Source: an uncultured Pseudomonadota bacterium (GTDB lineage: Bacteria; Pseudomonadota; Alphaproteobacteria; Caulobacterales; Aquidulcibacteraceae). From it: DNA of 64,000 nucleotides. Where the stretch lies: NCBI GenBank assembly GCA_963837475.1, contig CAWIND010000003.1, forward strand, positions 524,361 through 588,360, written 5' to 3'. The notes below the pieces were generated by a model that was not told the origin of the DNA, did no database searches, and saw only the letters and a list, made by a program, of their open reading frames with translations. Position 1 is the stretch's first letter. Every line of letters begins with the position of its first letter. The position numbers were made by a program, and so were the translations under genes. Shown piece by piece: positions 597 through 24,837 of this stretch.

Positions 597-619
597 ATGA
601 CGAGCGGAGGAGGCTCGGG

Positions 620-2198: not shown

Positions 2199-2238
2199 TC
2201 GCGGCGCAATGGCCCCACGACCGCCATTGGCTATGAGT

Positions 2239-5322: not shown

Positions 5323-5745
5323 ATGCGTCCCGCACCTCACGATCGATTCAGCACCGATGTGCAACTAACACCTGACATCGTGGCAGCGTTCGCGGCTGGC
5401 GTCGGCGACACTAATCCTCTGCACTACAATACCACTGAGGCCGCGCGTTCGCGCTTCAAGCGGCCGATCGCCAGCGGGACGCACACGAGCGCGCTTTTGC
5501 TGGGTCTAACCGCCAAGCACTTCTCCGATTTCGGCGGCATGCTTGGGCTCTCATTCTGGCTGAAATTCCGGCGTGCGGTCTTTGCCGACGAGCTGATTTC
5601 CCTGGAATGGCTCGTGATCAGAGTTTCTGAAAACGCCAAGCTCGGCGGCCAAGTCGTCGAGCTGCGCGGGCGTGTGCGCGGCGAAGACGGGCAGACCGCA
5701 GTGGGCGCCAAGGGGACGGTGCTCGTGACCGAGCGTCCACTGTAG
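5323..5745 (+). CDS. MaoC-family (hotdog) dehydratase
   Basis: FAAGVGDTNPLHY...RFKRPIASGTHT. Confidence 0.88.
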   Translation: MRPAPHDRFSTDVQLTPDIVAAFAAGVGDTNPLHYNTTEAARSRFKRPIASGTHTSALLLGLTAKHFSDFGGMLGLSFWLKFRRAVFADELISLEWLVIRVSENAKLGGQVVELRGRVRGEDGQTAVGAKGTVLVTERPL

Positions 5746-5796
5746 CGCAAGGCGGGCCGGCCGCTTAGCGCCTGAACGCCGTCGATCCCGCACTCC

Positions 5797-5910
5797 CTAC
5801 GGAGTTTCGGAGAAATAGTTGAGCACGGCGAAAGCAAGGGCGACCATCGCTGCGAGGATAGCGCCCAGCACGGCGAAATAGACAGCATCGCGATTGCGAT
5901 CACCAGTCAT
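5797..5910 (-). CDS. Small (37 aa) single-TM membrane protein
   Basis: MTGDRNRDAVYFAVLGAILAAMVALAFAVLNYFSETP. Confidence 0.45.
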   Translation of the reverse strand: MTGDRNRDAVYFAVLGAILAAMVALAFAVLNYFSETP

Positions 5911-6214
5911 GGCGAAAGCGTGCGCCCGAAGCGCGGAGGTTGCAATCTCCAGGTCGTTTGGCCTATGGCGGGGCCTCTTGTTGCTGTGGATAATGGTCCC
6001 ATGCCCGACAGCGCCAAGAGACAGATCGCTGCGATCCTTGCGTGCTGCCACGAGATGCGCGCGCTAACGCCGGGTGTTCAGCTGTCCGCGCTCAAACGCA
6101 CCTCGAAACCAGATGATCTGTGCTGTAGTCCAGACGCGAGGAAGGGCGCGATTGCGACTACCTGCTTTGGACGCTCATTATTGCTTGTTTGGCGCTAACG
6201 TTTTTCATGGCCGA

Positions 6215-6730
6215 ATGAGAACTCACCAGCCTCTCTGGGGAGCGCTTCCAAAAGCTGCGGGAGCAGCGTTTATCGTCGGCGTGCTCGTGGCTGGCCTTCT
6301 CAGCTGCACTGAGCGATCCGCAGCGCAGAGCGAAATCGTCGGCGTTGCATCCATCATTGACGGCGACACGATTGAAATCCACGGCACGCGAATTCGGCTC
6401 AGCGGCGTCGATGCGCCCGAGAGCGGCCATTATTGCGGAACGGTCAACGTCTATCAACGTGCTTCACAAGCGCTGGAGCACCTTGTGCAAGGACGCACGG
6501 TGAGCTGTGCGGTCTCGGGGCTCGATCGCTACGGACGGAGCGTCGCCATCTGCCGCATAGGTGGGACCGATCTTTCGCAGATCATGGTCGCGCAGGGCTG
6601 GGCGCGCGATTGGCCGCGCTACAGCCACCGCGCTTACGCCGACGCAGAGGCTTCGGCGCGCGCGGAGCATCGTGGAATCTGGGGTTTGCAGTGTCCAGCC
6701 ACCTTGTGGGGAAACCGTAACTACGATTGA
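6215..6730 (+). CDS. Thermonuclease (SNase-like) family protein, probably exported or a lipoprotein
   Basis: IIDGDTIEI, RIRLSGVDAPE, DRYGR, EASARAEHRGIW; hydrophobic N-terminus ending LLSC. Confidence 0.9.
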   Translation: MRTHQPLWGALPKAAGAAFIVGVLVAGLLSCTERSAAQSEIVGVASIIDGDTIEIHGTRIRLSGVDAPESGHYCGTVNVYQRASQALEHLVQGRTVSCAVSGLDRYGRSVAICRIGGTDLSQIMVAQGWARDWPRYSHRAYADAEASARAEHRGIWGLQCPATLWGNRNYD

Positions 6731-6874
6731 ACAAGGGCGCTTTCGGAGGGGGCGCATGAGAATCCGCTCACGGTCCTCTTCATCGGCCTGGCGTCCAATA
6801 GCTCCTGTCAATGGTCCAATGGGACCATAGCGGCATCGCAAAGACGCCGCGCAAATTGGCGCGGGGTTCTGACC

Positions 6875-8837
6875 TTGCGCATCACCGTGTCATGGGCAGC
6901 AATATGCTTGGTTCTCGTCGCCGGAGCTTGGCTCTCGACCTATTGGGTCGCATTGCTCTTCGCTTTCCAGCCGGCATTGGGTGGCGTGACCATCGCCGCA
7001 CTGCACTTCTACTGGCCTTGGGATGGTCTCACTTGGGACCTGCGCTGGTCTCGCCTTTATCCAAAGCCATTCGCGTTCGCTCGCCTTATCGAGACGCTTT
7101 CCCTTGGGCTCTCATTTCTCGCTTTTGCCGCCACGCGATCGCGCGATCTTGAACTCAAACCTTCAGCTTTGGGCGCGTGGGCCAATTTCGACGACGTCCG
7201 CCAAGCACATCTCTTTTCAAAGTCCGGTACCGTTCTCGGACGCTTCCGCGGCGAACTCCTCGCTTATGACGGCCCAGAACATCAGCTTCTGATCGGCGCC
7301 TCGCGTTCCGGCAAGGGAAGGGGGCATGTCGTCCCGACTTTGCTTGCAACCGAGCATTCAGCACTTGTCCTCGACATCAAGGGAGAACTCGCGGACGGCG
7401 ACCGCCGTTATGGCTTTCCAGGCACAGCCGGATTTCGCGAGACGCTTGGCCCTGTCCTTCGCTTTGCGCCCACATGCGAGTTCAGCGCGCGCTTCAATCC
7501 CTATGTTCGAGATTTAGAAGGGCGCAAACGAAGTTCGCGGCGCCCAAAACCTCATCGATGTCTTGTTCGGCGGCTATGAAGATAGAGGCGCCAAGGATTT
7601 CTGGCTGCGCAGTGCGGCCAATATCGCAGCGCCCGTTCTCCTGCATGTCCTCTACACCGAACCGCTCGAGCGCAAGACGCTTGCGGTCGTGCGCGAGAAG
7701 CTCCGCACGCTTGCAAAGACCTGCGAGGACATGCGCATCACGCTTCATCGCAATGGCCTAAAGACAGGTTCTCCCGAAGTGCATCCCGAGATCCTGCACG
7801 CGGCCGAGAGTTTCCTCGCCGCCGAGGAGCGCGTCCGTTCGGGCATTCAAGCGACGGCCGAAAGCCTGCTCGGCGTCTTCGCCGATCCGCTCGTTGCGCA
7901 AAACACCTCCACCTCCGACTTTCGCATCGGCGATCTGATGTGTCTTGATCGCCCCGTCACGCTCTATCTACAGCCGCCGGCCTCCGACGTCATGCGGCTC
8001 ATGCCGCTCATCCGACTTATCGTTGATGTTTGCGGTCGCACGCTCATGGAGAGCCAGACGGAAGATAGCCTCGGCCGAACCAAGCAGCATCGGCTTCTTC
8101 TGCTGCTCGACGAATTTCCGATGCTCGGCCGCATGCCCTTCTTCGAAATGATGATGGGCGCGATGAGCGGCTATGGGCTTAAGGCCTACCTTGTCTGCCA
8201 ATCCCTCAATCACATTGTCCGCGCCTATGGGCGAGACAACGTCATCCTAGACAATTGTCACATCGTGACGGCGTTTGCAGGCGCCGATAGCGAAACCGCC
8301 AAGCGTATTGCCGACATGGCGGGAGAAATCTGGGAGGTGCGCGAGAACCAAACGCAGCACAAACCCAAGCCGCTGCTTGGGCTTGGGAAAGGTTCAACGA
8401 CGCAACGCGAAGAACGCAGGCCGCTCTTGTTGCCAGGCGAGGTGCGCTCGCTTCCGCGCGACGAGCAACTGATCTTTGTCTCCGGCGCAAAGCCTATCCG
8501 CGCCAAGAAAATCCGCTTCGACGAGGAGGCGGTTTTCCAGAAGCGTTTGTGCTTCTCGTCGCAGCGCCAAATGAGGCTCACGACGACCCATGATTGGATC
8601 GATGTAAAGCCGCTGGGCGTCCTCGAAGCGAGCGCGACGTCCGCGACCACCAAACAGCGCCCAAAAGCCACGGCCCCGCCTCAAGGCGACCTCTTTGAGC
8701 GGCCGCCGGCGCCAAAGACATCTGAGCCATCTGAGCCATCCGAGCCATCCGATCTGGAGCTCGCGGGCTTTCGCGATTCCGGCGGCTCGCGCCCACACTT
8801 CGCACGCCATCGGTCTTCCAAGTCCAAAGGGATCTGA
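6875..8837 (+). CDS. traG: Type IV coupling protein TraG/VirD4, frameshifted near 7500-7530
   Basis: N-terminal TM helices, Walker A GASRSGKG, LLLLDEFPMLG, LKAYLVCQSLNHI; ORFs 6875..7579 and 7563..8837 join at FNP-MFEI. Confidence 0.9.
8719..8754 (+). repeat. 9-bp tandem repeat x4 (CATCYGAKC) in the traG tail, encoding SEPSEPSEPSD
   Basis: catctgagc catctgagc catccgagc catccgatc read directly. Confidence 0.85.
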
Positions 8838-8844
8838 TTGGCCA

Positions 8845-9273
8845 ATGCCACGCCGAGGCATCACCGTCTATTTGCCGCCCGTTCTCGAAACCAAGGTCGA
8901 GAAGATCGCGCGCGACCAGCATCGTTCCGCGTCTTCGCTCATCACCGAGGCCGTCAGACTACGCTTTGGCCGGCATGATTTATCGCTGCCGCAGGAATTG
9001 CCGCCTGGTTTCATCACGCGCATCGACGCGCGCCTCGATAAGACGATCGCTGAGACGCTCATCGTGAAGGAGGCAACACTCCTCTTCATACGCGTTTGGC
9101 TGGAACACCATCCCCCGCTCGACGAAGAGCATGAAGAAAGCGCCGCAGCAAGCGCGGAAGCGCGCTTTGAGCGCTTCCTCCAGCTTGTGGCCAATGGTCT
9201 TGGAGCAAGCCGGCGCTCGGTTGCGGGAGCGCTTGGCGCCGAAGAAACGCCGCCAAGCGATGAGCGATCCTGA
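8845..9273 (+). CDS. CopG/ribbon-helix-helix protein typical of the traG-trbB junction
   Basis: ITVYLPPVLETKVEKIARDQHRSASSLITEAV N-terminus; EARFERFL motif; position between traG and trbB. Confidence 0.85.
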   Translation: MPRRGITVYLPPVLETKVEKIARDQHRSASSLITEAVRLRFGRHDLSLPQELPPGFITRIDARLDKTIAETLIVKEATLLFIRVWLEHHPPLDEEHEESAAASAEARFERFLQLVANGLGASRRSVAGALGAEETPPSDERS

Positions 9274-10180
9274 ACGCGCCGCTCAAAGGCGCCGTTCGGC
9301 GCTTGAGCGCGCCTTGGGTGCGCCAATCGCAGGCGCGCTTGCGGCATCCGATGTCGTCGAGGTTCTGGTCAACGCCGACGGCAAAGTGTGGCTTGATCGC
9401 GTGGGGCAAGGCCTCTGCGAGACCGCTTACCAGCTGTCAATCTCCGATCGCGAAGCCGCGATCAGGTTGCTTGCCCATGAGGCCGGCCAAGTTGTTTGCG
9501 CGAGCCAGCCATCGCTTGCGACTATTCTTCCTCAGTCAGGTGCGCGCATTCAGGCGCTTTTGCCGCCCTTGGTCGATGCGCCGATCGTGTCGATCCGTAA
9601 GCGGCCAATGCGGATTTACACACTCGATGATTATGTCGAGGCAGGCATAGCGAGCGAAACCCAGGCCCAAAAACTGCGTCACGCTGTGCGCGAGAGATGG
9701 AATATCGTTGTCGCCGGCGGCGCGGGCTCGGGCAAGACCACGCTCCTCAATGCGCTGTTGGCTGAAGACGCCTTCAAACAATCGCGCGTCGTCATCTTGG
9801 AAGACACCGCTGAGCTCCAGTGCGCCAGTCCTAACAGCGTCCAGCTCCTGACCAAACGCACCGCTCCGCCCGTCACCATGCGCGATCTGGTGCAGATGAC
9901 GTTGCGCCTCAGACCCGATCGCATCGTCGTTGGCGAAGTGCGCGACGGGGCAGCGCTTGAAGTGCTGAAAGCCTGGAATACAGGTCATCCCGGAGGCTTA
10001 CTTACGCTGCACGCCAATTCTGCAAGCGACTCATTGGCTCGGCTTGAGGATCTGGCGTCGGAAGCGGCGGCCTCGGTCCCGCGACGTTTAATCGAAGCAA
10101 CTGTCGATCTGATCGTGTTCATTGCGCGAACCGACCGGGGTCGCCAAATCTCGGAGATCGAAGCGGCTCGTGATCGATAG
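9260..10180 (+). CDS. trbB: P-type conjugative transfer ATPase TrbB/VirB11
   Basis: VVEVLVNADG, Walker A GGAGSGKT, LRLRPDRIVVGEVR, WNTGHPGG, TLHAN. Confidence 0.95.
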   Translation: MSDPERAAQRRRSALERALGAPIAGALAASDVVEVLVNADGKVWLDRVGQGLCETAYQLSISDREAAIRLLAHEAGQVVCASQPSLATILPQSGARIQALLPPLVDAPIVSIRKRPMRIYTLDDYVEAGIASETQAQKLRHAVRERWNIVVAGGAGSGKTTLLNALLAEDAFKQSRVVILEDTAELQCASPNSVQLLTKRTAPPVTMRDLVQMTLRLRPDRIVVGEVRDGAALEVLKAWNTGHPGGLLTLHANSASDSLARLEDLASEAAASVPRRLIEATVDLIVFIARTDRGRQISEIEAARDR

Positions 10181-10187
10181 CCTCAAA

Positions 10188-10544
10188 TCACGCCGGCTGA
10201 AGCGCCTTGCGCACTCCATCGGGATCCCGCGCAATGACTTTGAGATAGGCGCGCGTGGGCATATCGGGTTCGGCTCGCCCTTGCTCCCAATCACGCAGCG
10301 TCCCAAGCGGTATCTGAAAGCGGACTGAGAACTCTTCTTGGGTGAGCCCAAGCGCACGGCGCAGCACCTTCACCTGAGGCACGCGCTTCATCGAGCTCAT
10401 TTGCTTCTTGGTGAGCGGCCGAGCATCACGATCTGCCTTTGCTGCAGCACGCACGGCGTCGGCGTCCATCGTCCGGCCCCGAGGGACCCTCACCGGATCG
10501 CGCCCGCGACCCTTGGTGAGGCGGCCGGCCTTATCCATTCTCAT
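10188..10544 (-). CDS. XRE/Cro-C1 HTH protein, putative antitoxin
   Basis: LRRALGLTQEEFSVRFQIPLGTLRDWEQGRAEPD; start overlaps the toxin stop. Confidence 0.85.
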   Translation of the reverse strand: MRMDKAGRLTKGRGRDPVRVPRGRTMDADAVRAAAKADRDARPLTKKQMSSMKRVPQVKVLRRALGLTQEEFSVRFQIPLGTLRDWEQGRAEPDMPTRAYLKVIARDPDGVRKALQPA

Positions 10545-10824
10545 GATAATAGTAGTCTTCTTCATCACGGTTTGCTCGTCGGGCTGAAATCAATCGAATA
10601 CGAGGCGTGTCCGGGTCAGGGCTCCGGTCCGTATGCACTACGAAAAGCAATCCATTTGGGGCCATACCCAGCAGGATTGAACGCTCCTCGCCGTAATCCT
10701 CCCGGTCGTCGAGCCATTCGACGCCAAGCGGATCGCGGAACGCTTGCGTCGCCTGTTCAAAGCTGACGCCGTGTTCGCGAAGGTTCTTCGCGGCCTTGTC
10801 TTCGTCCCACTCGAACGCGATCAT
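10531..10824 (-). CDS. brnT: BrnT-family (DUF497) ribonuclease toxin
   Basis: FEWDEDKAAKNLREHGVSFE, DYGEER, RIRLISARRA. Confidence 0.92.
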   Translation of the reverse strand: MIAFEWDEDKAAKNLREHGVSFEQATQAFRDPLGVEWLDDREDYGEERSILLGMAPNGLLFVVHTDRSPDPDTPRIRLISARRANRDEEDYYYHENG

Positions 10825-10850
10825 GCGACTAGGTCAAAACTGTCAATTCC

Positions 10851-10879
10851 ATACTACGGGAAACCCGTAGTAGTGTCAA
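10851..10879 (-). promoter_or_regulatory. Sigma70 promoter of the TA operon with a perfect palindromic operator
   Basis: Minus strand TTGACA-N17-TAGTAT; TACTACGGG-AAA-CCCGTAGTA at 10852-10872. Confidence 0.8.
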
Positions 10880-11089
10880 TACCGACGCCAAGAGGGAAGT
10901 GAAGACGGTGGGGGACCTATCCTCAAGCACAGCCCATGACTCTGTTTTGATTGTCGCAAGGTGCGGCGAGGTGTTTGCGCGCGCGATGGGAATGCGATCA
11001 CACACAGGCGTTTCCGCAATTGAATGCAATTGGGGCGTGCAACGATTTGTGAGAGCAATCACGCAACGAAGCGAGCAGGGAGTGCTTAC

Positions 11090-11407
11090 GTGTTGGTGCA
11101 AAACAAGCTCAAACGAACGATCGCGCTCGCGATCCTGTTGTTCGGAATAGCAGTACCTGCCTATGCCGCGGGCACCGGCATGCCTTGGGAACAACCACTC
11201 CAGCAGGTGCTCGATAGCATCACCGGTCCAGTCGCCCGCGCCGCCGCGGTCATCGCCATCGTCATCTCCGGCTGTGGGATCATGTTTTCAGAAGGCGGCG
11301 GCGGTGTGCGCAAGCTCGCCTTCGTCGGCCTGGGCATCGCCATCATTTTCGCCGCCGCTTCCTTCTTCCTGCAGTTTTTCGGGTTTGCTGGCGGAGCCCA
11401 GATTTGA
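11090..11407 (+). CDS. trbC: Pilin TrbC/VirB2
   Basis: Signal peptide, AYAAGTGMPWEQPLQQVLDSITGPVA, two TM helices, FFGFAGGAQI tail. Confidence 0.92.
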   Translation: MLVQNKLKRTIALAILLFGIAVPAYAAGTGMPWEQPLQQVLDSITGPVARAAAVIAIVISGCGIMFSEGGGGVRKLAFVGLGIAIIFAAASFFLQFFGFAGGAQI

Positions 11408-11477
11408 CCGCGAACTGAACGCGGGCGTGTCGCTCGCTACGACTGACATTGGAAACTAAACCAAAGGGGACTTCGAC

Positions 11478-11741
11478 ATGCTCGAAGAGCCAGAGGCATA
11501 TCGCGCGCCTTTGCGCACCAGTCTGACGAGACCCATTCTCATGGGCGGCGTACCCAGAGGCTTTGCTATCGCCAACGCCACCATCGGCGCTGCCATTGGC
11601 CTTGGCCTGCAACAGCCGCTCATCGGCTTTCCGCTCTGGCTGGTTTTGCAGGCCGCAGCGGCGTGGGCCGCCGCCCACGATCCCTGGTTTCTCGAAACCT
11701 GGCCGCGGCATCTCTCCAAGCCTGTCTACTTCTCGGCGTGA
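11478..11741 (+). CDS. trbD: TrbD/VirB3
   Basis: LRTSLTRPILMGGVPR, DPWFLE; position. Confidence 0.92.
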   Translation: MLEEPEAYRAPLRTSLTRPILMGGVPRGFAIANATIGAAIGLGLQQPLIGFPLWLVLQAAAAWAAAHDPWFLETWPRHLSKPVYFSA

Positions 11742-11751
11742 GGCAGGCGCG

Positions 11752-14215
11752 ATGATCGATCTGCGTCCCTACAAACAACGCGGCGCCAAACTCTCGGACT
11801 ATCTCCTGTGGGCCGCACTCATCGCCCCCGGCCTTGTCTTGAACAAGGACGGCGCGTTCCAGCGCACGCTCGCTTTCCGTGGCCCTGATCTCGACTCTTC
11901 CACACCATCCGAATTGATGGGGGCCGCGGCCCGGCTCAATAATGCGCTCCGCCGCTTCGGCTCCGGCTGGTGCATTCACGTTGAAGCCCGCCGTGCGCCA
12001 GCGCTGGGATATCCGGACGCTCAATGGCCCGATGCGCTCTCCTGGCTCATCGACGAAGAACGCCGCGCCGTTTTTGAGACCGCGGGCGCTCGTTTCGAGA
12101 GCCAATATTTCCTGACGTTGACCTGGCTTCCGCCGGCCGAACGGCAAGGCAAGCTCGAAAGCGTCTTGTTCGAAGGCGGCGAGAGCCAAGCCAAAACCAC
12201 AGTCGATTATCGCGCTCACCTTGAACGCTTCACCCACGAGAGCGATCAGTTCATGGCGCTGATCGAGACCTTGATGCCGTGCGCGCAATGGCTCGATGAC
12301 GAGGAGACGCTCTCTTTTCTGCACGATTGCATTTCCGATCGTGCACATCGCGTCGCTGTCCCGCACGCGGCGTTCCATCTCGACACGCTTTTGACCGACG
12401 CGCCCTTGCTCGGCGGGCTCGCGCCCAAGCTCGGCGCCAAGCATCTCAAGATCATCTCGATCCGCAGCTTCGTCGCCGAAACCGAACCGGGGCTCTTGGA
12501 TCAGCTCAATCGGCTGCCAATCTCCTATCGCTGGGTGACGCGCTTCATGCCGCTGGATCGCGAAGAAGCGCGCACGCAACTCGAAATCATCCGCAAGCGC
12601 TGGTTCTCGAAGCGCAAAGGCTTGCTGACGCTGCTCCGCGAAGCGCTCTTCCGCGAAGAAGCGGCGCTTCAGGACAATGACGCCAACAACCAAACGCTAG
12701 ACGCCGATGCGGCGCTGCAGGAACTGGGCGCCGATGCGGTCAACGCCGGCTACGCGACGCTTACCATCACGATCGCGGAGGACGCCGAGGACGCCGCCAA
12801 CGACGCGGTCCGGCAAATTCAGCAGATTGCGGATGGCCTCGGCTTCATCACCCAAGTCGAAAGCGTCAATGCGGTCGAGGCGTGGCTCGGCTCGTTGCCC
12901 GGTCACGCCTATGCCGATGTGCGCCGGCCGATTCTCCTCTCGCCATCACTCGCGCATCTGCTGCCCACGAGCGCGGTGTGGGCCGGCCCCAGCCGCAATG
13001 CATCATCTGGATGCAGCGCCGCTCATGCTGACCGCCACCGATGGCGCAACGCCATTCCGGCTCGACCTCCATGTCGGCGATGTCGGCCACACCATGATTG
13101 TGGGCCCCACCGGCGCCGGCAAATCCGTGCTGCTGGCGACTCTGGCCGCGCAATGGCTGCGCTACGAGCAAGCCCAAGTCTACATGTTCGACAAAGGCCG
13201 CTCGTGCCGCGCCACGATTTTGGGTCTCGGCGGCGATTTCTTCGATCTCGGCGAAGAGGGCGCGCTCGGCTTGCAACCATTGGAGCGCGTTGACGAAGCC
13301 GATGAACGCACCTGGGCGCTCGATTGGCTCGCCGGCCTCATCGCCAGCGCCAACGTCATCGTCCCGCCAGAACTCCGCGCCGAACTTTGGCGCACGCTTG
13401 AGATCCTGAGTGAGCGGCCAAAAGAGGATCGCACACTCACGTTGGTTTCGGCCCTGGTCCAAGATGCCTCCGTGCGCGCCGCGCTCGAACCGTTCACGCA
13501 TGCGGGACCTTATGGCCGTCTGCTCGATCATGACCATTCGTCTCTAGGCTATGGGCGCGTGCAAGCCTTCGAAATGGACGATCTCATGCGCCGCCCGCAT
13601 GCCGTTGGCGCGGTCTTGGGCGTTCTCTTCCATGTGCTGGAGCGCCGCTTCGATGGCAGACCCACTCTGCTCGTCCTCGACGAAGCCTGGCTCTTCTTGA
13701 AAGACGCCGCCTTCGCCAACCAAATTCAGGATTGGCTGAAGACGCTCCGAAAGAGGAACGTCGCTGTCATCTTCGCATCCCAAGAACTCGCCGACGTTGA
13801 AGCCAGCGCAATCGCCTCCACCATCATCGAAGCATGCTTGACGCGCATCTTCCTGCCTAACGATCGCGCCCGCGAACCGAGATCACGTGCCTTCTATGAG
13901 GCGCTTGGTCTCAACGCCCGTCAGATCGAGCTCATCGCCAACGCGACGGCGAAGCGCGATTACTATCTCACCTCCCGCAATGGCGCGCGTCTGTTTGAAT
14001 TGGGCCTTGGACCCGCCGCGCTCGCCTTCGTCGCCGCCTCGCGTCCCGAAGATCACGCGCTGATCGACCACGTCCTTGAGCAGAACGGGCCAGATGCGTT
14101 CGCGAGCGCCTGGCTCGAAGCCCGCGGCTTGCGCGACGCCGCCGATGCGGTGTGCCGCTTCAACGCAACCCGACCCGCAGCTGAGCCCGCGCCCAACTCT
14201 ATCGCAGCTGAATAG
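11752..14215 (+). CDS. trbE: Conjugal transfer ATPase TrbE/VirB4, frameshifted near 13000
   Basis: LSDYLLWAAL, NKDGAFQRT, Walker A GPTGAGKS, LLVLDEAW, KTLRKRN; ORFs 11563..13293 and 12707..14215 join at RNA-HLDAAP. Confidence 0.93.
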
Positions 14216-14226
14216 GAGAGACCGTC

Positions 14227-14949
14227 ATGCAGAAGGCATGGATGAAACGACTTGCGGCAACGGCGCTGGTCCTGGCCTTCGCGTTGACGCCGGCCCAGCC
14301 GGGGCGCGCCATCACCGTGTTCGATCCGACCAATTACGCCCAGAACATCCTGCAAGCCACCCGCGCGCTCGAACAGATCAACAATCAGATCCGCCAAATC
14401 GAGCAACAAGCGCAGATGCTGACCCGCAATCCGCTGCAGCTGTCGCCGGAGTTGCAACAATCGATCAGCGACGCGCGTCAGCTTTTCTCCGCGGCGCAAG
14501 GCCTCACCTTCCAAGTCCAGCAAATGAGCCAGCAATTGCATGAACTCTATCCCGACACCTGGGCCAATTTCGATCTCGGTCAAATCGGCGACCGCACGCA
14601 GCAATGGCTCCAACAGGATCGCGCCGGAATCGAAGACGCGATGCAGGCCGAAGCGCGCGCCGCCCAATCGATGCAGGCCATGCAGGGGCAGATTGATCGG
14701 GCGCTGCAATCCTCCGCCAACGCAGAGGGCCAGACCGGCGTCGGCCAGGCTACCAATCAACTCCTGGGCATCAACGCGGCCCAGCTCGCCGAAATCCACG
14801 CACTGTTGATCGCCCAAGGCAGAGCGCTCGAAACCGAGCGACTTGAACGTGTCGCCCGCGAACAGCGCGCCGCGGAGATCCAGCGCCGCGCCTTCCCAAT
14901 CCAATCCAACGCCTCGCTCGATCCGGCGCGCTCAGCCTTCAATCACTGA
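14227..14949 (+). CDS. trbJ: TrbJ/VirB5
   Basis: Signal peptide, TVFDPTNYAQNILQATRALEQINNQI. Confidence 0.93.
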   Translation: MQKAWMKRLAATALVLAFALTPAQPGRAITVFDPTNYAQNILQATRALEQINNQIRQIEQQAQMLTRNPLQLSPELQQSISDARQLFSAAQGLTFQVQQMSQQLHELYPDTWANFDLGQIGDRTQQWLQQDRAGIEDAMQAEARAAQSMQAMQGQIDRALQSSANAEGQTGVGQATNQLLGINAAQLAEIHALLIAQGRALETERLERVAREQRAAEIQRRAFPIQSNASLDPARSAFNH

Positions 14950-14960
14950 GACAAGCGCGG

Positions 14961-16010
14961 ATGAACCCGACCACCACCAATTCCTTCCTTGACCGCTTCT
15001 TGAGCGTCGCGGATTCAGGCTTTGGCCTCATCCAAGGCGATGTCAGCGCCGTGTTGAACGCGCTCATAGTCTTGTCCGTGGTGCTCGCCGGCATTCAATG
15101 GATCTTGGCCAATGAGGCGCCGCTCGCGCCCTTCTTCCGCAAAGTGCTGTTCGTCGGGCTCTTTGCGTTCCTCGTAAACAATTGGGATCACCTCACCACG
15201 GTGATCGCTCAATCGGGCGTCATGCTGGGCCTCAAAGCCGGCGGCGGCGCAATGAGCATGGCCGACCTCCACAATCCCGGCCGCATCGCCCAAACCGGCG
15301 TCGACATGTTTGGGCGCACCTCCGCGCTTGGCGCCGGCATGAACATCATAACCGATTTCATGCCGCTCATCACCATCTACATCGCGGCCTTCTTCGTGAT
15401 GCTGGGCTTCTTCGTGCTTGCGCTGCAGCTCTTCGTCTCGCTGATCGCCTTTAAGCTGGGCGCGCTCGCAGCCTTCGTCGCGCTCCCCTGGGGCGTGTTC
15501 AACGGCACGTCATGGGTGGCAGAGCGCCCGCTCGGCTGGGTTGCGGGCTGCGCGATCCGGCTCTTTGTCCTGGCGCTCATCGCCTCGGTCTCGATCACCT
15601 TCGTCAATTCATTGCCTGGTGCGTTCACGCTCGACGCAGGGGGCGCTCTGCAAGTGCTCTTCTTTGGCCTCACCATGATCGCGCTTGCTTGGTTCGCGCC
15701 CGTGCTCGCAAGCGAAGTGGTGCAGGGTCAACCACATCTTTCCGGCTCGGACGCGATCCGCACCGGCGTCGGCGCCACTTTCGCCACCGCGGGCGGCGTC
15801 CTCCTCGGCGCCACCGCGTTCAAATCCATCACCCGCACCGGCGGCGCGCTCATGGAAATGGCTGGCGCCAGCCGTCCGCGCAGCGCCGGAAGAGGCGGTA
15901 GGTATCGCGGTGGCGGCTCTTCACGTCCGCAGATCAATTACGCACGCATGCAGCCGCGTCCGTCTTCGCCGCCGCCTCCACCGCCCTCCGGTTCAGGAAG
16001 CAACCCATGA
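14961..16010 (+). CDS. trbL: TrbL/VirB6
   Basis: DSGFGLIQGDV, multi-TM, PWGVFNGTSWVAERPLG, low-complexity tail. Confidence 0.92.
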   Translation: MNPTTTNSFLDRFLSVADSGFGLIQGDVSAVLNALIVLSVVLAGIQWILANEAPLAPFFRKVLFVGLFAFLVNNWDHLTTVIAQSGVMLGLKAGGGAMSMADLHNPGRIAQTGVDMFGRTSALGAGMNIITDFMPLITIYIAAFFVMLGFFVLALQLFVSLIAFKLGALAAFVALPWGVFNGTSWVAERPLGWVAGCAIRLFVLALIASVSITFVNSLPGAFTLDAGGALQVLFFGLTMIALAWFAPVLASEVVQGQPHLSGSDAIRTGVGATFATAGGVLLGATAFKSITRTGGALMEMAGASRPRSAGRGGRYRGGGSSRPQINYARMQPRPSSPPPPPPSGSGSNP

Positions 16011-16690
16011 ATTTCCCATTCCGATCGCCGGCGAAATCATTCGCGCCACCTCAAGCTGACACGCCATACGCACGCGCCCGGCAAGAATGGGATGCACGCA
16101 TGGGCTCTGCCGTGCTCTCCGCGCGCGCCTGGCGCGCCATCGCTTATGGGTCGCTGGCGCTTGCCGCCATCATGGGCGTCTCTCTCACCGCCGTCGCGAT
16201 GCAGAAGCGCACGTTCGTGCATGTCGTCGAAGTCGATCCGCAAGGCCAGGTCATGAGCGTGCGCGCCGCCGACGGACGCTGGACGCCAACCCAAGCGCAA
16301 ATCGCCGCGGAACTCGGGCGCTTCATCCGCCGCGTACGCTCATTGCCCACGGACGGCGTCGTGCTCCGAGAAAACTGGATGGAAGCCTATCGCTTCCTGA
16401 CCCCGCAAGCAGCGACACATCTGACGCAAATTGCCCGCGACGATGATCCGTTCCTCTTGCTCGGTCGCGTCGGCCGCACCGTGCAAGTGCGCTCCATTCT
16501 CGCCCGTTCCGATCACAGCTGGGAAGTGAGCTGGACTGAACGCAACACCAACGAAATGGGATCACCCGATCCAGAGACTTACACCGGCGTCTTCACAATC
16601 ACCACGCGTGCGCCCACCAACGCCGATGAGATCGCCGTTAACCCGCTCGGCATTTTGATCTCTGACTTCTCCTGGAGCCGCGAACGATGA
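16007..16690 (+). CDS. trbF: TrbF/VirB8
   Basis: TPYARARQEWDARMGS, NPLGILISDFSWSRE. Confidence 0.95.
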   Translation: MNFPFRSPAKSFAPPQADTPYARARQEWDARMGSAVLSARAWRAIAYGSLALAAIMGVSLTAVAMQKRTFVHVVEVDPQGQVMSVRAADGRWTPTQAQIAAELGRFIRRVRSLPTDGVVLRENWMEAYRFLTPQAATHLTQIARDDDPFLLLGRVGRTVQVRSILARSDHSWEVSWTERNTNEMGSPDPETYTGVFTITTRAPTNADEIAVNPLGILISDFSWSRER

Positions 16691-17544
16691 AACCGGTCCG
16701 CCTTCTGTTCATCGCAACAGCGATCGTCGCTGTGAGCATGCCTGCCTTCGCGGAAAGACGCCGCGCCAATGCGGCGAATGCCCAAACGCCGCTCGAAGCA
16801 TTGGCGGCCGCCAACGCCGCCTCACGTCAGCATCCCACGCACGCGGGTTTCGACGACGCGCGCCAAGTCTATGGCTACGAACCGGGAAAGATCTACGAGC
16901 TCTACACCAACCCGTCCTACATCTCGACCATCCTGCTCGAACCGGGCGAAACCGTCTCCAATATCGCCGCCGGTGACACCTCGCGCTGGATGGTGACCGA
17001 AGCCGACGGCGAAAGCGAAGGCGATGCGCGCACCATCGTCTTGGTCAAACCGCGGGCCGCCAATCTCCGTACCAATATTGTCATCATCACCGACCGGCGC
17101 ACCTATTTGGTTGAAGCGGTGTCGCAAGCGGGCAGCGCCTATTCCGCGCAGGTGGCCTGGTCGTATCCAGAGACGCTAGGAGGGAGCGCAAATAGATCGC
17201 CGATCGCCAACATCAATTTCAATTACCGTGTGCGCACAACCCGCGGGCGGACACCGATCTGGTCGCCGGTGCGCGTCTTCGATGATGGCCGCCGCACTTG
17301 GGTGGAATTTTCCCCCGACGTTGCCGCATCCGACATGCCGCCGCTCTTCGTCGTCACAGCTGACGGCGCCGAACTCGTCAACTACCGCATCCAAGATGGG
17401 CCGTCAGGTCAGCGCTACATGATCGACCGGATTTTCGATTGCGCCGAACTCCGTCTCGGCACGCGCGCGCAAACGATCGTCCGCATTGAACGCAATCCGA
17501 CGCCATCGCGCGCACTGACGATCCGCCATGGATCACATCCATGA
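16687..17544 (+). CDS. trbG: TrbG/VirB9
   Basis: GDTSRW, TNIVIITDRRTY, VFDDGRRT, LVNYRI. Confidence 0.95.
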   Translation: MKPVRLLFIATAIVAVSMPAFAERRRANAANAQTPLEALAAANAASRQHPTHAGFDDARQVYGYEPGKIYELYTNPSYISTILLEPGETVSNIAAGDTSRWMVTEADGESEGDARTIVLVKPRAANLRTNIVIITDRRTYLVEAVSQAGSAYSAQVAWSYPETLGGSANRSPIANINFNYRVRTTRGRTPIWSPVRVFDDGRRTWVEFSPDVAASDMPPLFVVTADGAELVNYRIQDGPSGQRYMIDRIFDCAELRLGTRAQTIVRIERNPTPSRALTIRHGSHP

Positions 17545-18650
17545 GCACGACCACCTCCGCGCCGCCGCAAGCGCCGCCCAACGTCGCTATTCGCGCCACG
17601 CTGCCGTCGCCACGACGCCTATCGCGCAAAGTGTTGCTCGCCGGCGTCGCCCTTGCGGGAACCATCATAGCCGCGGCGCTCATGCTTGGCCTTTCCCCGC
17701 AAGCGCACCGCGGGGCGGCACAGCAAGACCAAACGGCTGCCGCAAGCGGCCCACCCGAAACCATTGCGCAAGCGTCATCGCAATATGATCCCGCCGCGCT
17801 GCCGCGCCACACGTTGCCGACGCCGCCTGCCGATCCTGCGGTGCTCGCCGAGTTGCGAGGACCAACGGATCCGATGTGGGCGAGCAATCCCGCTTCGGCG
17901 GCGCCGAACACGGTGGTGGGTGCAAGCGCGCCGCAATCCGCATCGACGGCGGATCCTCAATCGGTCGCGCGCAGCTCGCCGATCCTGTTTGCGACTTCTG
18001 CCAGCGCGTCACGAACCGCAAACGTTCGCGATACGGGCGAAGCCTATCTCGACGCCTCGCTCATTCCGCCGCGCTCGCGCTTTTCCATTCAAGCCGGCAG
18101 CATCATCCCCGCCGCTCTGGTGAGCGAACTAAACTCGGATCTCGCCGGGCGCGTGATCGCGCAAGTGACAGCGGCGGTCTATGACAGCGTCACGGGCAAT
18201 CATCTGCTCATTCCCCAAGGCGCCCGTTTGATTGGCGCCTACGACAATGGCGTCCGCTACGGTGATCATCGCATTGTGCTCGTGTGGAATAGACTGATCC
18301 TCCCGAATGGCTGGTCGCTCAATCTTGGCCAGATGGCGGCCTCGGATCCAACTGGCGCCGCAGGTCTTTCCGATCGCACCGACAATCATTTAGCGGGTCT
18401 TGCGGGCGCCGTCGGTCTCTCGGCCATCATCTCCGTCATCGCCAATAATTCCGAAGACGACCAACGCACCGATGGATCCTTGGCGCAAGGCGTTGGCGAC
18501 GCCGCCGCGCAACAGGCCGCACAAACGGGTTCGCAGATCGTGCAGCGCGAACTCTCGGTGCACCCGACGCTTCGCGTGCGCCCCGGCGCCAATGTGCGCG
18601 TGCTCGTCACCCGCGACATTGCGCTCCGACCCTACATTTCAATCCATTGA
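17541..18650 (+). CDS. trbI: TrbI/VirB10
   Basis: AGSIIPAALVSELNSDLAG, LLIPQGARLIG, PTLRVRPG. Confidence 0.95.
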   Translation: MSTTTSAPPQAPPNVAIRATLPSPRRLSRKVLLAGVALAGTIIAAALMLGLSPQAHRGAAQQDQTAAASGPPETIAQASSQYDPAALPRHTLPTPPADPAVLAELRGPTDPMWASNPASAAPNTVVGASAPQSASTADPQSVARSSPILFATSASASRTANVRDTGEAYLDASLIPPRSRFSIQAGSIIPAALVSELNSDLAGRVIAQVTAAVYDSVTGNHLLIPQGARLIGAYDNGVRYGDHRIVLVWNRLILPNGWSLNLGQMAASDPTGAAGLSDRTDNHLAGLAGAVGLSAIISVIANNSEDDQRTDGSLAQGVGDAAAQQAAQTGSQIVQRELSVHPTLRVRPGANVRVLVTRDIALRPYISIH

Positions 18651-18727
18651 GACGCCGCGATCTCCTTCCGCAAAAGGCCGTGGCCGAGGCGGATGTCTCT
18701 TGTTGGGATTGTTCTGATCTCTGAGGA

Positions 18728-19705
18728 TCAGTTGGCGAGCGTCGCGCGCAGGCCGTGCCGCTTGCGATAGCGCGCCGGCGGGACGTCGAACTCACGTTTG
18801 AATGCGCGGCTGAAAGACGCTTCGGATTCGTAGCCGACGCCGACGGCGATTTGTTGAATGCTCTTGTGTGTGGTCTCCAGGAGGCGAACCGCGAGTTGCA
18901 GCCGCCACCGCGCCAGATAGGCGAGGGGCGACTTGCCAAGAAATCGTGCAAAGCGCGCTGTCAGCACCGAGCGCGATGTACCCGCTTCTTCCGCCAATCC
19001 ACGCAGTGTCCACGCGTTGAGCGGCTTTCGATGAATGAGAGCCAGTGCGGCGCCTACAATTGGATCACGAGCAGCCGCGAGCCAACCGACGTGTTCGGCC
19101 GGCAGTTGCGTCATGTATTGCCGCAATCCTTCCACGAAGAGCGCCTCCGACGCTTTGGCCAACAACACAGATTGCCCGGGCCGATTGGCGCCGGCGTCGG
19201 CGACGAGATGCCTGATCGAGGTTTCGATCCAGGCGCCGGCGGAGTCTCCGCGGATGTTGATTTTGATCATCGTCGGCAGGCCCGCAAGGAACATACGGTC
19301 GGCGTGACGTTCGCATCCGAAATAGCCGCAGATGAAACGGGTGAGCTCGCCGCCTTCGCCAACCCGCATCGTGGCAAGCGTGCCCGTGAGATAGTCGCGA
19401 AGCGAAGCGCTGCTGTCGATCCAGGCGGGTGGTGAGCCGTTTGACACGGTGTGCGCATCGCCATGCGGGATGATCAGCACTTCGCCCGCCCTCACCTCAA
19501 TTGATGGTTCGTCTGCGAATTGCACGATCGCCTTGCCGTCAGTGACGAGGTGAAAGGTTACAAGTCGCTCGGTTCCCGGAGCGAGCACGTGCGCGACATC
19601 GCCGAGAGGGGGAACAGAAAAGCCCCACGGCGCCGAGCACTCGAGGGAATAGAAAATCGCCCCGGTCATCCGTACGGCGTTCAAGGCTTCGGAGAGGGCG
19701 TCCAT
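18728..19705 (-). CDS. AraC-family transcriptional regulator with cupin N-terminus
   Basis: MDALSEALNAVRMTG; C-terminal VGYESEASFSRAFKREFDVPPARYR. Confidence 0.92.
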   Translation of the reverse strand: MDALSEALNAVRMTGAIFYSLECSAPWGFSVPPLGDVAHVLAPGTERLVTFHLVTDGKAIVQFADEPSIEVRAGEVLIIPHGDAHTVSNGSPPAWIDSSASLRDYLTGTLATMRVGEGGELTRFICGYFGCERHADRMFLAGLPTMIKINIRGDSAGAWIETSIRHLVADAGANRPGQSVLLAKASEALFVEGLRQYMTQLPAEHVGWLAAARDPIVGAALALIHRKPLNAWTLRGLAEEAGTSRSVLTARFARFLGKSPLAYLARWRLQLAVRLLETTHKSIQQIAVGVGYESEASFSRAFKREFDVPPARYRKRHGLRATLAN

Positions 19706-19808
19706 GACTTCTCGCCTCTGCAAAGTAACCCGGCATTGCGGCTAAGGTCAGCGGCGCCGTGCGCGAATAGATTGCCTAGGCGGTTTGGGCTTCTAGAGGA
19801 CGTTACCG

Positions 19809-21026
19809 ATGGTTCACCCAAACAAATCCTACGACGCCATCGTCATCGGCGCGCGCTGCGCGGGTTCGCCAACAGCGATGCTGCTTGCGCGCAAGGGTCA
19901 CAAGGTTCTGCTCGTCGATCGTTCGACGTTCCCAAGCGACACCATCTCGACGCACGTCGTCCATCCCCGCGCTGTGTCGGCACTCGAACGTTGGGGGTTG
20001 CTCGAGGCGTTGGTCGCCACCGGCTGCCCGCCCATTCACACCTACGCGTTCGACTTTGGTCCATTCACCATTGAAGGGGCGCCGGGAACCAAGGCATCGC
20101 CCGTCGCCTATTGCGCCAGGCGAACGGTCCTCGACAAACTCCTGCTCGACGCGGCGACCGCGGCCGGCGTTGAAGTGCGTGAAGGATGGACTGTCGATGA
20201 AGTCATAAACGACGACGGCCGCGTCATCGGCGTCCGTGGTTCTGCAGGCGACGGCCAAAGCGTTACCGAGCACGCGCGCATCGTCATCGGCGCCGACGGG
20301 CGCAATTCGATCGTCGCCGAAAGTGTGCATGCTGAGCTCTACAACGAAAAGCGGCCGTTCCTGGCGATCTATTACGCCTATTGGCGCGGACTGCCGCTCA
20401 ATGGTCGGTTTGAAACCTACATCCGTCCAAACAGGGGCTTCGCCACGGCCGAGACCCATGATGACCTCACAATGATCGTGGCTGGTTGGCCGCAGGCTGA
20501 ATTCGCGAATGTCAAAAGCGACATCGAGGACGCATTTCTCACGGTAATTGATCTCGCGCCGGCATTTGCCAAGCGCATGCGCGCCGCGGAGCGCTCAACG
20601 CGCTTCGTTGGCGCCATCACGCCGAATTTCTTTCGAAAACCTTATGGCCCCGGATGGGCGCTCGTTGGCGATGCCGGCTACCTTAAGGATCCGATCACAG
20701 CTCAAGGCATTCTCGACGCATTCCGGGATGCGGAGCGTTGTGCTCAAGCCGTTGACGAGGCGCTCAGCCCGCGGCGTCCTTTCGACGAGGCCATGGCTGA
20801 CTATCAGCGCGACCGCGACGCCGATGCGCTGCCTATGTATGATTTCACCTGCATGCTGGCGATGCTCGAGCCACCGCCGCCCGATCTGCAGAAGCTCTTG
20901 GGTGCGGTGCACGGCAATAAACAGGCCATGGATGCCTTCGCCCAAACCAACGCGGGGACCATGTCGCCGGCCCACTTCTTTGCGCCCGCGCATGTGGACG
21001 CAATATTGCGAGCGGCGCGATCATAG
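19809..21026 (+). CDS. NAD(P)/FAD-dependent oxidoreductase (geranylgeranyl reductase/FixC-like fold)
   Basis: YDAIVIGARCAGS, VIGADG, WALVGDAGYLKDPITAQGI. Confidence 0.9.
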   Translation: MVHPNKSYDAIVIGARCAGSPTAMLLARKGHKVLLVDRSTFPSDTISTHVVHPRAVSALERWGLLEALVATGCPPIHTYAFDFGPFTIEGAPGTKASPVAYCARRTVLDKLLLDAATAAGVEVREGWTVDEVINDDGRVIGVRGSAGDGQSVTEHARIVIGADGRNSIVAESVHAELYNEKRPFLAIYYAYWRGLPLNGRFETYIRPNRGFATAETHDDLTMIVAGWPQAEFANVKSDIEDAFLTVIDLAPAFAKRMRAAERSTRFVGAITPNFFRKPYGPGWALVGDAGYLKDPITAQGILDAFRDAERCAQAVDEALSPRRPFDEAMADYQRDRDADALPMYDFTCMLAMLEPPPPDLQKLLGAVHGNKQAMDAFAQTNAGTMSPAHFFAPAHVDAILRAARS

Positions 21027-21068
21027 CAGCTCGGCTTGCATCGGCCGCCAATACGGAACAGACCACGG

Positions 21069-21244
21069 TCACCGCGCCCGATGCTGAGGGGCGTCCGTTT
21101 GTCCGCATGCGTCGATATCGACCTCGGCTTGTTTAGCCCAGTTGTCAGCGTCGCTTTGCGCTTGACGCTCTGGGAGGCATGACTGCCTTTATGACGGATC
21201 TGGATCAGCCACTTGCCGGACTTAAGTTGAGAAATCACCGTCAC
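21069..21244 (-). pseudogene. Truncated, frameshifted N-terminus of a tyrosine integrase
   Basis: Manual translation VTVISQLKSGKWLIQIRHKGSHASQSVKRK, then after a shift near 21152 DADNWAKQAEVDID; this matches the arm-binding N-terminus pattern of tyrosine integrases; no catalytic domain. Confidence 0.7.
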
Positions 21245-21367
21245 TGCATACGCCCCAAATAGAGACGGCTCGTATGCGCTGCGTGTGCACAGCCGACGGA
21301 ATCGACGGGAATTGAGCTGACGCGGCATGATCGGTGTGCAAATCAAGCCAGCCTCATCTCACCAATT

Positions 21368-22372
21368 TTGTTCAAAATCATGCTAGATCAAGCACGTAGT
21401 TTCTCCATCGCGCCCATGATGGATTGGACCGACCGGCATTGCCGGGCCTTCCATCGCGTCCTCACGGGCCATGCGCTGCTCTATTCGGAAATGCTGACCG
21501 CGGACGCCATCCTTCACGGCGATCGCGAACGATTGCTTGGGTTCTCGGACGTGGAGCACCCCGTCGCGCTGCAACTCGGCGGCAGCGATCCCGATAAAAT
21601 CGCTGAGGCAGCACGCATTGGCGCTGCCTTCGGCTACGACGAGATCAATCTCAACATCGGCTGCCCATCCGACCGCGTGCAAGCCGGGCGCTTCGGCGCC
21701 TGCCTCATGCGCGAGCCCGACCTGGTGGCGCGGCTTTGGGCGGCCGCACAGAATGCTGCGCCAAACATTGAAGTCACCATCAAGTCGCGCATCGGCGTCG
21801 ACGATCAGGATGCACGCGCCGCGCTCTTCACATTGGTCGATCTCGCCGCGCGAGAGGGCTGCGGCATTTTCATTGTGCATGCGCGCAAGGCGTGGCTGAG
21901 CGGCCTGTCGCCCAAGGAAAACCGCGATGTGCCGCCGCTCGACTATGAACTCGTTCGCGACCTCAAGCGCGAGCGTCCTCATTTGCAAGTGATCCTCAAT
22001 GGCGGTTTGCGCGATCTCGATCATGCGCTCAGCGAAAGCGCCGGCCTTGACGGCGCCATGCTGGGGCGCGCCGCTTACCAAAATCCAGCAACGCTACTTG
22101 ATGTCGATGCGCGCATTTTCGGCGCGCATTCGCCATCGCAATCGCGCGCGCACGCCGTGGAGCTGTTCATCCCTTATATGGAAGCTATGCGCGCGCGCGG
22201 CGTGCCCTTGCACGCCATGACGCGCCATATGCTGGGCCTCTTCAATGCACAACCTGGCGGACGGATGTGGCGGCGTACGCTCTCAGAACATGGTGTGCGG
22301 CCAGGCGCTGGCGTTGATGTGGTTCGCACAGCGCTCGCGCACGTCGCGGTGGATGCTGAAGAGGCCGCCTAG
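21368..22372 (+). CDS. dusA: tRNA-dihydrouridine synthase A (start TTG 21368 or ATG 21380)
   Basis: FSIAPMMDWTDRHCR, INLNIGCPSDRVQ, HARKAWLSGLSPKENR. Confidence 0.95.
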   Translation: MFKIMLDQARSFSIAPMMDWTDRHCRAFHRVLTGHALLYSEMLTADAILHGDRERLLGFSDVEHPVALQLGGSDPDKIAEAARIGAAFGYDEINLNIGCPSDRVQAGRFGACLMREPDLVARLWAAAQNAAPNIEVTIKSRIGVDDQDARAALFTLVDLAAREGCGIFIVHARKAWLSGLSPKENRDVPPLDYELVRDLKRERPHLQVILNGGLRDLDHALSESAGLDGAMLGRAAYQNPATLLDVDARIFGAHSPSQSRAHAVELFIPYMEAMRARGVPLHAMTRHMLGLFNAQPGGRMWRRTLSEHGVRPGAGVDVVRTALAHVAVDAEEAA

Positions 22373-23645: not shown

Positions 23646-24837
23646 ATGGATCTCGAATTTTCGCCGGAAGACATCGCCTTTCGCAATGAAGTGCGCGCCT
23701 TCATCGAGGCAAATTACCCGCCCCACCTGAAGGGTCGCGTTTTGCGGGAGGATTTGTCGAAGGAAGACTTCCTCGCTTGGCACAAGATCCTCGGCAAGAA
23801 GGGCTGGTCGGCGCCGGCTTGGCCGAAGGAATACGGCGGCACAGGCTGGACGGCGACGCAGCGTTACATCTGGCTTGAAGAAAACGCCCGCGCCGAGACC
23901 ATCCCGCCGCTTCCGTTCGGCGTCTCGATGGTGGGCCCCGTCATCTACACGTTCGGCACGCCCGAACAGAAAGAGCGCTTCCTGCCCGGCATCCTCAAAG
24001 GCGATGTCTGGTGGGGCCAGGGTTATAGCGAACCCGGCGCCGGATCCGATCTCGCCAGCCTGAAAACCAAGGCCGTGCGCGAAGGCGACTTCTACATCAT
24101 CAACGGCCAGAAGACCTGGACCACGCTCGGCCAATACGCCGACTGGGGTTTCTTCCTTTGCCGCACCGATCCTAACGCCAAGCCGCAAGAAGGCATTTCC
24201 TTCATTCTCGTCGACATGAAATCGCCCGGCGTGAGCGTGCGTCCGATCAAATTGCTCGACGGCGGCTACGAGGTGAACGACGTCTTCCTCGACAATGTCA
24301 AAGTGCCGGTCGATCAACGCATCTATGAAGAGAACAAGGGCTGGACCTGCGCCAAATTCCTGCTCGCCCATGAACGCGCCGGCATTGCCGGCGTGGCGCG
24401 CTCGAAGCGCAATGTCGAACGCCTGAAGTCGATCGCGAAATCGGAAATCGGCGATGATGGCAAGCGCGCTGATCGAGGACGAAGATTTTCAGCGCAAGCT
24501 CGCCGAGCTTGAGATCGATCTCGCGGCGCTTGAGATGACCGAGCTGCGCGTGCTCGCGCGCGAACATGCGGGCAAGGGTCCAGGACCTGAATCTTCGCTT
24601 TTGAAAATCAAAGGCACCGAAATTCAGCAGCGCCTGACGGAATTGACGCTCGAAGCTGTCGGCAATTACGCCCAGCCCTATCTGCGCGATACGCCCGGCG
24701 GCAACGAATTTCCGGTCGGTCCCGACTATGCGCGCAGTGCAGCGCCTGTCTATTTCAACTGGCGCAAAGCCTCGATCTATGGCGGCTCAAACGAAATCCA
24801 ACGCAACATCATCGCCAAGATGGTGCTGGGGCTTTAA
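23646..24837 (+). CDS. Acyl-CoA dehydrogenase, PimC-like subunit, frameshifted near 24465
   Basis: GQGYSEPGAGSDLASL, NGQKTWT, SIYGGSNEIQRNII. Confidence 0.9.

Follow-up and report, generated by a model that had tools for sequence, protein, structure and literature searches.

A truncated integrase fossil and an island-type dusA 5' end as the probable scar of a dusA-specific genomic island in an uncultured Caulobacterales bacterium

The closest described relatives of the locus presented here are the genomic islands of the dusA-associated integrase (DAI) family, in which an Rci-like integrase gene lies beside the 5' end of dusA and reads away from it, the target is near the dusA start, and the island supplies a replacement for the dusA 5' end (Farrugia et al. 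2015, PMC4482086). These islands are known from Alphaproteobacteria, including remnants and islands bearing a type IV secretion system (T4SS) (PMC4482086). In this study we analyzed a 64,000-nt window of contig CAWIND010000003.1, whose protein matches point to Terricaulis/Vitreimonas-like Caulobacterales. Positions 21069 to 21447 of this window contain an integrase fossil, a repeat-bearing spacer, and the start of dusA, and are very probably the attR-side scar (att, attachment site) of a dusA-specific genomic island of the DAI family. Recombination between the island and the conserved ATGATGGATTGGAC core of dusA would have put the island's own AT-rich version in place of the dusA promoter and the first ~12 codons. 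The island integrase gene, transcribed away from dusA, has been reduced to ~50 N-terminal codons with a 1-nt deletion, and its remainder swapped for a 2.4-kb AraC/flavin adenine dinucleotide (FAD)-monooxygenase cassette, the other breakpoint of which, at 18687, lies in a small helix-turn-helix (HTH)-like open reading frame (ORF) after trbI. The scar is an ordinary, well-documented kind of degraded member of a known island family and not a new kind of element; modestly useful additions are the repeat layout that is conserved between loci and the island-type scars that recur in other genomes, both described below.

The fossil is located on the minus strand in the 340 bp that separate the monooxygenase stop codon from dusA. 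Its GTG start (21244-21242) aligns with the Met or Leu start of intact homologues. Piece A comprises 26 codons after the start (VTVISQLKSGKWLIQIRHKGSHASQS, 21244-21167), and piece B (QSDADNWAKQAEVDIDAC, 21158-21105) continues in the next frame after 8 nt (21166-21159) where the homologues have 9, i.e., after a 1-nt deletion; the frame then runs on to a TGA at 21071-21069. In a search of the window, split into 1757 six-frame pieces, with a hidden Markov model built from nine N-termini of integrases beside dusA in other genomes, the two pieces ranked first and second. They are collinear on the profile, at positions 2-31 (E 4.6e-6) and 30-51 (E 4e-3), and the peptide with the missing base restored scores 50.1 bits (E 2e-14). 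The homology ends at approximately profile position 51, near 21100, and everything after codon ~52 is gone. The catalytic domain of tyrosine recombinases carries an RHRH tetrad and a nucleophilic tyrosine; this domain and the core-binding domain (together about 300 codons) are missing from the fossil, and no further homology to the rest of such an integrase was found anywhere in the 64-kb window. The frameshift is real and not an assembly error, because independent short-read contigs show the same sequence: a contig from another run (L082) matches window positions 13388-21429 without gaps at 99.88% identity and includes the frameshifted fossil, and a 151-nt contig spanning 21055-21205 shows no difference from the window.

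Eighty dusA loci fetched from genomes of other species served as the comparison set, in which the closest DusA (74% identity) is that of a Hyphomonadaceae metagenome-assembled genome (MAG). By tblastn, the fragment matches 13 of these loci, always at the N-terminus of a minus-strand ORF that starts ~100 bp upstream of dusA, and searches from several independent intact integrases converge on the position of the fossil. In seven of these loci the ORF, in the same position and orientation, encodes a ~350-aa protein with the Pfam domain Phage_integrase. Over 328 residues, the intact Brevundimonas albigilva integrase (L004) shares 38% identity (E 1e-63) with that of phage mEp460, which is listed as a DAI homologue (Farrugia et al. 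2015, PMC4482086); among the other phage matches are proteins whose annotation is shufflon-specific (Rci-like) recombinase. A sequence search of the PDB with an intact neighbor integrase returned no match.

The view that the fossil frame is a chance ORF is scarcely credible. The fragment is indeed short, Pfam and NCBIfam give no match for it because of this shortness, and a search of a large protein database with the repaired 58-aa peptide returned no word-sharing homologue. On the other hand, the profile E-value, the collinearity of two pieces in adjacent frames, the 13 other loci with identical position and orientation, and the conserved motifs of the flanking DNA all speak against chance, and the tblastn, profile, and spacer-alignment results refute it. 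On sequence grounds, the fossil is the dead and truncated remnant of a dusA-associated integrase, a pseudogene and non-functional member of the family. An earlier note on this DNA had described a frameshifted minus-strand fossil that faces away from dusA and has lost its catalytic domain. It is present as described, with ~50 codons of integrase homology and no further piece in the window, and alignment to dusA-associated integrases, which the note had named beforehand as a check, gave the matches reported above. Decay of the integrase at the dusA side is recurrent: broken integrases, with stops or frameshifts, occur ~100-250 bp upstream of dusA in a Hyphomonas MAG (L006), a Xanthobacter sp. 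(L018), a Caulobacteraceae MAG (L025), and Caulobacter radicis (L038).

The dusA gene itself is full length, and its product matches the NCBIfam DusA equivalog with 465.7 bits (cutoff 269) as well as Pfam Dus. An exact look-up of the window DusA with either the ATG or the TTG start returned no record; the gene is called from Met17 there. A+T makes up 65% of the 40 nt in front of the conserved dusA core, although the window as a whole has about 62% G+C; this agrees with the AT-rich first codons and the replacement 5' end that had been proposed. The pattern AAAAATG..AAATCAAG..ATAGATTTTC.GT.GC.CC characterizes the AT-rich dusA start of all 16 integrase-bearing loci and runs into the universally conserved ATGATGGAYTGGAC; in most integrase-free loci dusA starts with unrelated, GC-rich sequence. 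A DNA profile trained on 13 island-type starts gives the window start 10.1 bits (E 0.005), a value in the range of its training members, and about 58 integrase-free loci give no match. These results support the assignment of the window dusA start to the island-supplied type, and islands of the DAI family are described as replacing the dusA 5' end (PMC4482086). The core in which island-type and native-type 5' ends converge is probably the attR crossover region, and the att position of the family matches this region (PMC4482086). The ends of short-read contigs at 21429 and 21418 fall within the core. These breaks fit a junction, although a k-mer common to many species is the simpler explanation.

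Two integrase-free loci, L043 and L065, have island-type AT-rich dusA starts (17.5 and 15.8 bits) but lack an integrase N-terminus in the nearest 400 bp; both resemble scars from which the integrase has wholly vanished. The dusA starts of L041, L062, L064, L020, L056, and L010 resemble those of L043 and L065 by eye. In L020 (Bradyrhizobium japonicum SZCCT0231), an inverted near-copy of the dusA core (9931, minus strand; 4 mismatches in 26 nt) is located 82 bp upstream of the core.

The spacer between the fossil start and dusA measures 135 bp to the ATG or 123 bp to the TTG. It contains two perfect copies of GTGTGCA (21283-21289 and 21334-21340), at the two places noticed earlier, and two degenerate copies (TGCATAC, 21245-21251; CGTATGC, 21271-21277). 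An alignment of 14 spacers (13 integrase-bearing loci and the window) reveals a common layout in which CGTGTGC-N5-GTGTGCA stands directly upstream of the integrase start; the form CGTrTGC covers the window, which has CGTATGC-N5-GTGTGCA at 21271-21289. A further copy, usually inverted (TGCACAC), is located nearer dusA, and in some loci an extra copy abuts the integrase start codon. Exact 7-mers were counted in the 210 bp upstream of dusA: there are 22 in the 16 integrase-bearing loci versus 5 in 63 others. Since the whole window contains only five copies, 0.016 would be expected per 210 bp. Four of the five copies in integrase-free loci belong to L020, L043, L062, and L064, whose dusA 5' ends are AT-rich and island-like by eye, although only L043 also matches the island-type profile. 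Because of this conserved layout and enrichment, the GTGTGCA motif is a real conserved element of integrase-dusA spacers. The repeats are probably arm-type or operator sites, candidates for binding by the integrase N-terminal domain or by an island regulator. Two of the four copies in the window would have begun to decay, and the repeats may be relics of an att arm or of integrase regulation.

Lambda-like tyrosine integrases also have short repeats clustered in the att arm by the integrase gene and a separate small N-terminal domain. The GTGTGCA repeats could equally be an operator for an island regulator. The suggestion of an att site with arm-type sites has some support for GTGTGCA, whose conserved repeats would fit an arm-type or operator role, and none for the CGACGG(G)AAT tandem with which it had been paired: the tandem has no counterpart in the other aligned spacers and is probably incidental. 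The spacer of L069 (about 9750-10000) contains seven GTGTGCA/TGCACAC copies, an expanded array of the motif.

Table 1. Coordinates of the features in and around the dusA scar (window positions)
Feature	Position	Strand	Basis or remark
T4SS block: traG, 147-aa ORF, trbB, BrnT/antitoxin insert (minus), trbC, D, E, J, L, F, G, I	6875..18650	plus	Pfam
HTH/MqsA-like antitoxin	10188-10568	minus	in the trbB-trbC gap, antisense to the operon
BrnT-family toxin	10531-10824	minus	between trbB and trbC
First ~14 codons of the ~105-aa HTH-like ORF after trbI	18647..18687	plus	left breakpoint at 18687
Strain-specific cassette between two truncated genes	18688..21068		absent from 97-98% relatives
AraC/cupin regulator	18728-19723	minus	cassette gene
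FAD monooxygenase	19809-21026	plus	cassette gene
Pseudogene of a dusA-associated (Rci-like) tyrosine integrase	21069..21244	minus	profile search, tblastn, short-read contigs
Integrase-dusA spacer with GTGTGCA-type repeats	21245..21379		14-spacer alignment, 7-mer counts
Tandem CGACGGAAT / CGACGGGAAT (CGACGG(G)AAT)	21294..21312	plus	spacer alignment
dusA, tRNA dihydrouridine(20/20a) synthase, full length	21368..22372 (ATG alternative 21380)	plus	NCBIfam DusA equivalog, Pfam Dus
Island-type replacement dusA 5' end	21380..21415	plus	ATG 21380 and 12 codons MLDQARSFSIAP; alternative start TTG 21368
Universally conserved dusA core ATGATGGATTGGACCGACCGGCATTGCCGGGC, codons MMDWTDRHCR	21416..21447	plus	convergence of island-type and native-type 5' ends

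No attL, the second core copy that had been expected upstream, was found: blastn-short, tblastn, and a fuzzy 26-mer search (≤6 mismatches in 26 nt) over the window, including the 21 kb upstream of dusA, gave chance matches only. The 1.9 kb to the left of window position 1, read from a contig of the same strain (L176 958-2855), contain no hallmark of an integrative and conjugative element (ICE) and no att site; this segment encodes a 506-aa PBP_like_2/OmpA protein. No attL was found in the 10-kb flanks of the integrase-bearing loci either, and the islands there are therefore larger than these flanks. Excision or attB joints were not seen in the assembled contigs of the low-depth metagenomes. 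The gene adh_short, which is the native neighbor to the left of dusA in related genomes, does not occur in the 21 kb upstream. In Terricaulis silvestris adh_short adjoins dusA (L095 9275-9949), and in GCA_006365015.1 a 10-kb chemotaxis cluster (L088 359-9918) separates the two genes, so that the region upstream of dusA varies also where no island is present. Lacking a recombinase and a nearby attL, the junction would no longer be resolvable by its own machinery; a related integrase in trans and a partner att site would be needed. The dusA gene would now be permanently expressed from island-derived spacer DNA.

Compared with the family described in 2015, the locus has sequence homology over the N-terminal 50 codons of the integrase, a location 5' of dusA in divergent orientation (a geometry shared by 13 other loci), and a replacement dusA 5' end. 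The catalytic domain is absent, and of the two semi-conserved direct repeats (attL and attR) that bound islands of the family only the attR-side core is present, with no partner in the window and a left flank read for only ~1.9 kb. The scar is a degraded member of the family, which it joins by sequence and position and from which it departs in the lost catalytic domain. Unlike DAI islands, moreover, the window has no PrtN-like gene nearby, and its cargo beside the fossil consists of the 2.4-kb AraC/monooxygenase cassette, the joints of which are illegitimate breakpoints. Several points weigh against the scar interpretation. The match to the dusA 5'-end profile is modest (10 bits), and a simple sigma-70 scan of the spacer found no promoter consensus. 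The binding role of the GTGTGCA repeats is one that we infer. As no attL was found, a bounded island is deduced from one end only. Finally, the relatives compared below are metagenome contigs, in which linkage of the T4SS block to dusA is not established.

The 2.4-kb cassette sits exactly between the truncated HTH-like ORF and the truncated integrase. In this T4SS family a ~105-aa HTH-like ORF, which belongs to no Pfam family, always follows trbI. Relatives at 97-98% identity, represented by contigs from four soil metagenomes, cover window positions 1-18687 and 21418 onward at similar depth. They contain nothing at ≥90% identity for 20904-21371, and for 18688-20903 their metagenomes have only traces of other organisms. 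Two of the contigs (L083 and L084) match the window up to 18687; past this point L084 enters other DNA, which ends in the 3' part of an extracytoplasmic function (ECF) sigma-factor gene. A relative (L084 3358-3600) has approximately nine more matching codons of the HTH-like ORF than the window before similarity is also lost, and since it keeps more of this ORF, 18687 is a derived breakpoint in the window lineage. Terminator and promoter scans and a search for breakpoint repeats over 18600-21500 gave nothing beyond chance. Of 80 soil metagenome loci (L096-L175), 20 contain the divergent AraC/FAD-monooxygenase pair, with AraC 66-68% identical, and none of the 20 has such an integrase, dusA, or trb genes nearby. 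The AraC/cupin and FAD-monooxygenase genes form a conserved two-gene module in soil metagenomes.

The T4SS block to the left of the cassette is, in its mating-pair-formation genes and coupling protein, complete (traG and trbB, C, D, E, J, L, F, G, and I by Pfam). It resembles the Trb/TraG-type ICEs of Caulobacterales, such as that of T. silvestris (L087), in the order traG, a 147-151-aa ORF, and trbB, C, D, E, J, L, F, G, and I, with a TrbI identity of 57-72%. In contrast to them, it retains only ~14 codons of the HTH-like ORF, has a BrnT toxin-antitoxin pair between trbB and trbC, and shows no relaxase or integrase of its own in the window; these relatives are not integrated at dusA. Neither a relaxase nor an oriT was found among the larger ORFs scanned in 1-21000, and either may lie outside the window. 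The only integrase trace near the block is the fossil, and the relatives hold the block without it. In the window, traG and trbE are each split, and the relatives have one base fewer at 7502 and 13000, which restores the frame. The same pattern, a single extra base, is observed at 24463-24466 in a core acyl-CoA dehydrogenase gene. As all three frameshifts are extra bases specific to this assembly, and one of them is in a core gene, they are probably consensus errors and not gene decay. Decay of the T4SS as support for a stranded ICE was rejected, given that a core gene has the same assembly-specific extra base.

Whether the fossil belongs to this T4SS is a separate matter from the scar itself. 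The earlier note had taken the fossil as the probable right end of a T4SS-bearing ICE. This is not established: the relatives keep the block without the fossil, related T4SSs are not tied to dusA, and the tie of the fossil to the adjacent element is unproven, the evidence leaning slightly to a separate history of the 2.7-kb block 18688-21417. It is possible, but doubtful, that the fossil is the integrase of a T4SS ICE seated in dusA, with its right end here, and that one replacement removed the cargo from the HTH-like ORF to integrase codon ~52 and stranded the ICE. The distance from trbI to the fossil is only 2.4 kb, the breakpoints at 18687 and ~21100 flank one compact cassette, and both breakpoints would be accounted for by one substitution within a single element. 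The ancestral dusA neighbor is missing from the 21 kb upstream, with the T4SS block in that space. Cargo follows trbI in this T4SS family, and T. silvestris has an integrase ~10 kb further on; T4SS-bearing dusA islands have been reported in Caulobacterales (PMC4482086). However, the T. silvestris integrase (417 aa) belongs to a P4-like type and is encoded on the trb strand, unlike the fossil, and some 290 kb separate the T4SS of that genome from dusA. GCA_006365015.1 has its T4SS ~29 kb upstream of dusA; there the dusA start is native and GC-rich, with the chemotaxis cluster in front of it. None of the 16 integrase-bearing loci has trb genes in the 8-9 kb behind the integrase, and attL and a relaxase were not found in the window. 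The 97-98% relatives, moreover, keep the T4SS block and pass from 18687 into the other DNA with the ECF sigma gene, and have dusA from 21418 at equal depth, whereas 20904-21417 finds no counterpart in them at ≥90% identity. A more specific version is unlikely, namely that a single replacement, which put the AraC/monooxygenase cassette between the HTH ORF and integrase codon ~52, immobilized a dusA-integrated T4SS ICE in one step, and that dusA has since depended permanently on island promoter DNA whose GTGTGCA repeats once coupled integrase and dusA expression.

A quite plausible reading, although still tentative and a little short of even, is that the fossil, the spacer, and the dusA 5' end came from a different dusA island, possibly one with the AraC/monooxygenase cassette as cargo, that arrived or persisted only in the lineage of this strain, and that a later deletion fused the remnant to an older, vertically inherited T4SS element. 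Block 18688-21417 is strain specific, both of its flanks are common to the relatives at about equal divergence, and the strain-specific arrangement is also found in other samples. Small remnants are common, in that other lineages repeatedly show decayed integrases as well as island-type dusA 5' ends that lack an integrase. The costs are that at least two deletions or a complex replacement would be needed and that the AraC/monooxygenase pairs of the 20 metagenome loci are never beside such integrases, dusA, or trb. The sequence of the relatives just upstream of dusA, furthermore, is not readable: the assembly graph collapses into 31-mers in the core, and its loose ends mix several species.

As a dusA-specific island scar, the locus would represent the end of such an island's life, in which the recombinase decays while the island promoter and first codons stay as the working start of a housekeeping gene. 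In a broader and less probable generalization, island-derived dusA 5' ends that outlive their integrases (L043 and L065, and also L006, L018, L025, and L038 with their broken integrases) would repeatedly turn mobile DNA into a fixed part of a housekeeping gene. The AT-rich 5' signature may flag present or past island occupancy of dusA where no integrase remains, and the GTGTGCA layout offers candidate arm-type or operator sites for a little-studied integrase family. The locus also advises caution, as adjacency and probable assembly frameshifts do not make T4SS genes a decaying or stranded ICE.

The trbB-trbC gap that holds the BrnT/antitoxin pair in the window is closed in T. silvestris (L087) and in L089, where trbC directly follows trbB. 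In L091, a Gp49/HTH_37 pair occupies that spot, and the gap looks like a hotspot for addiction modules.

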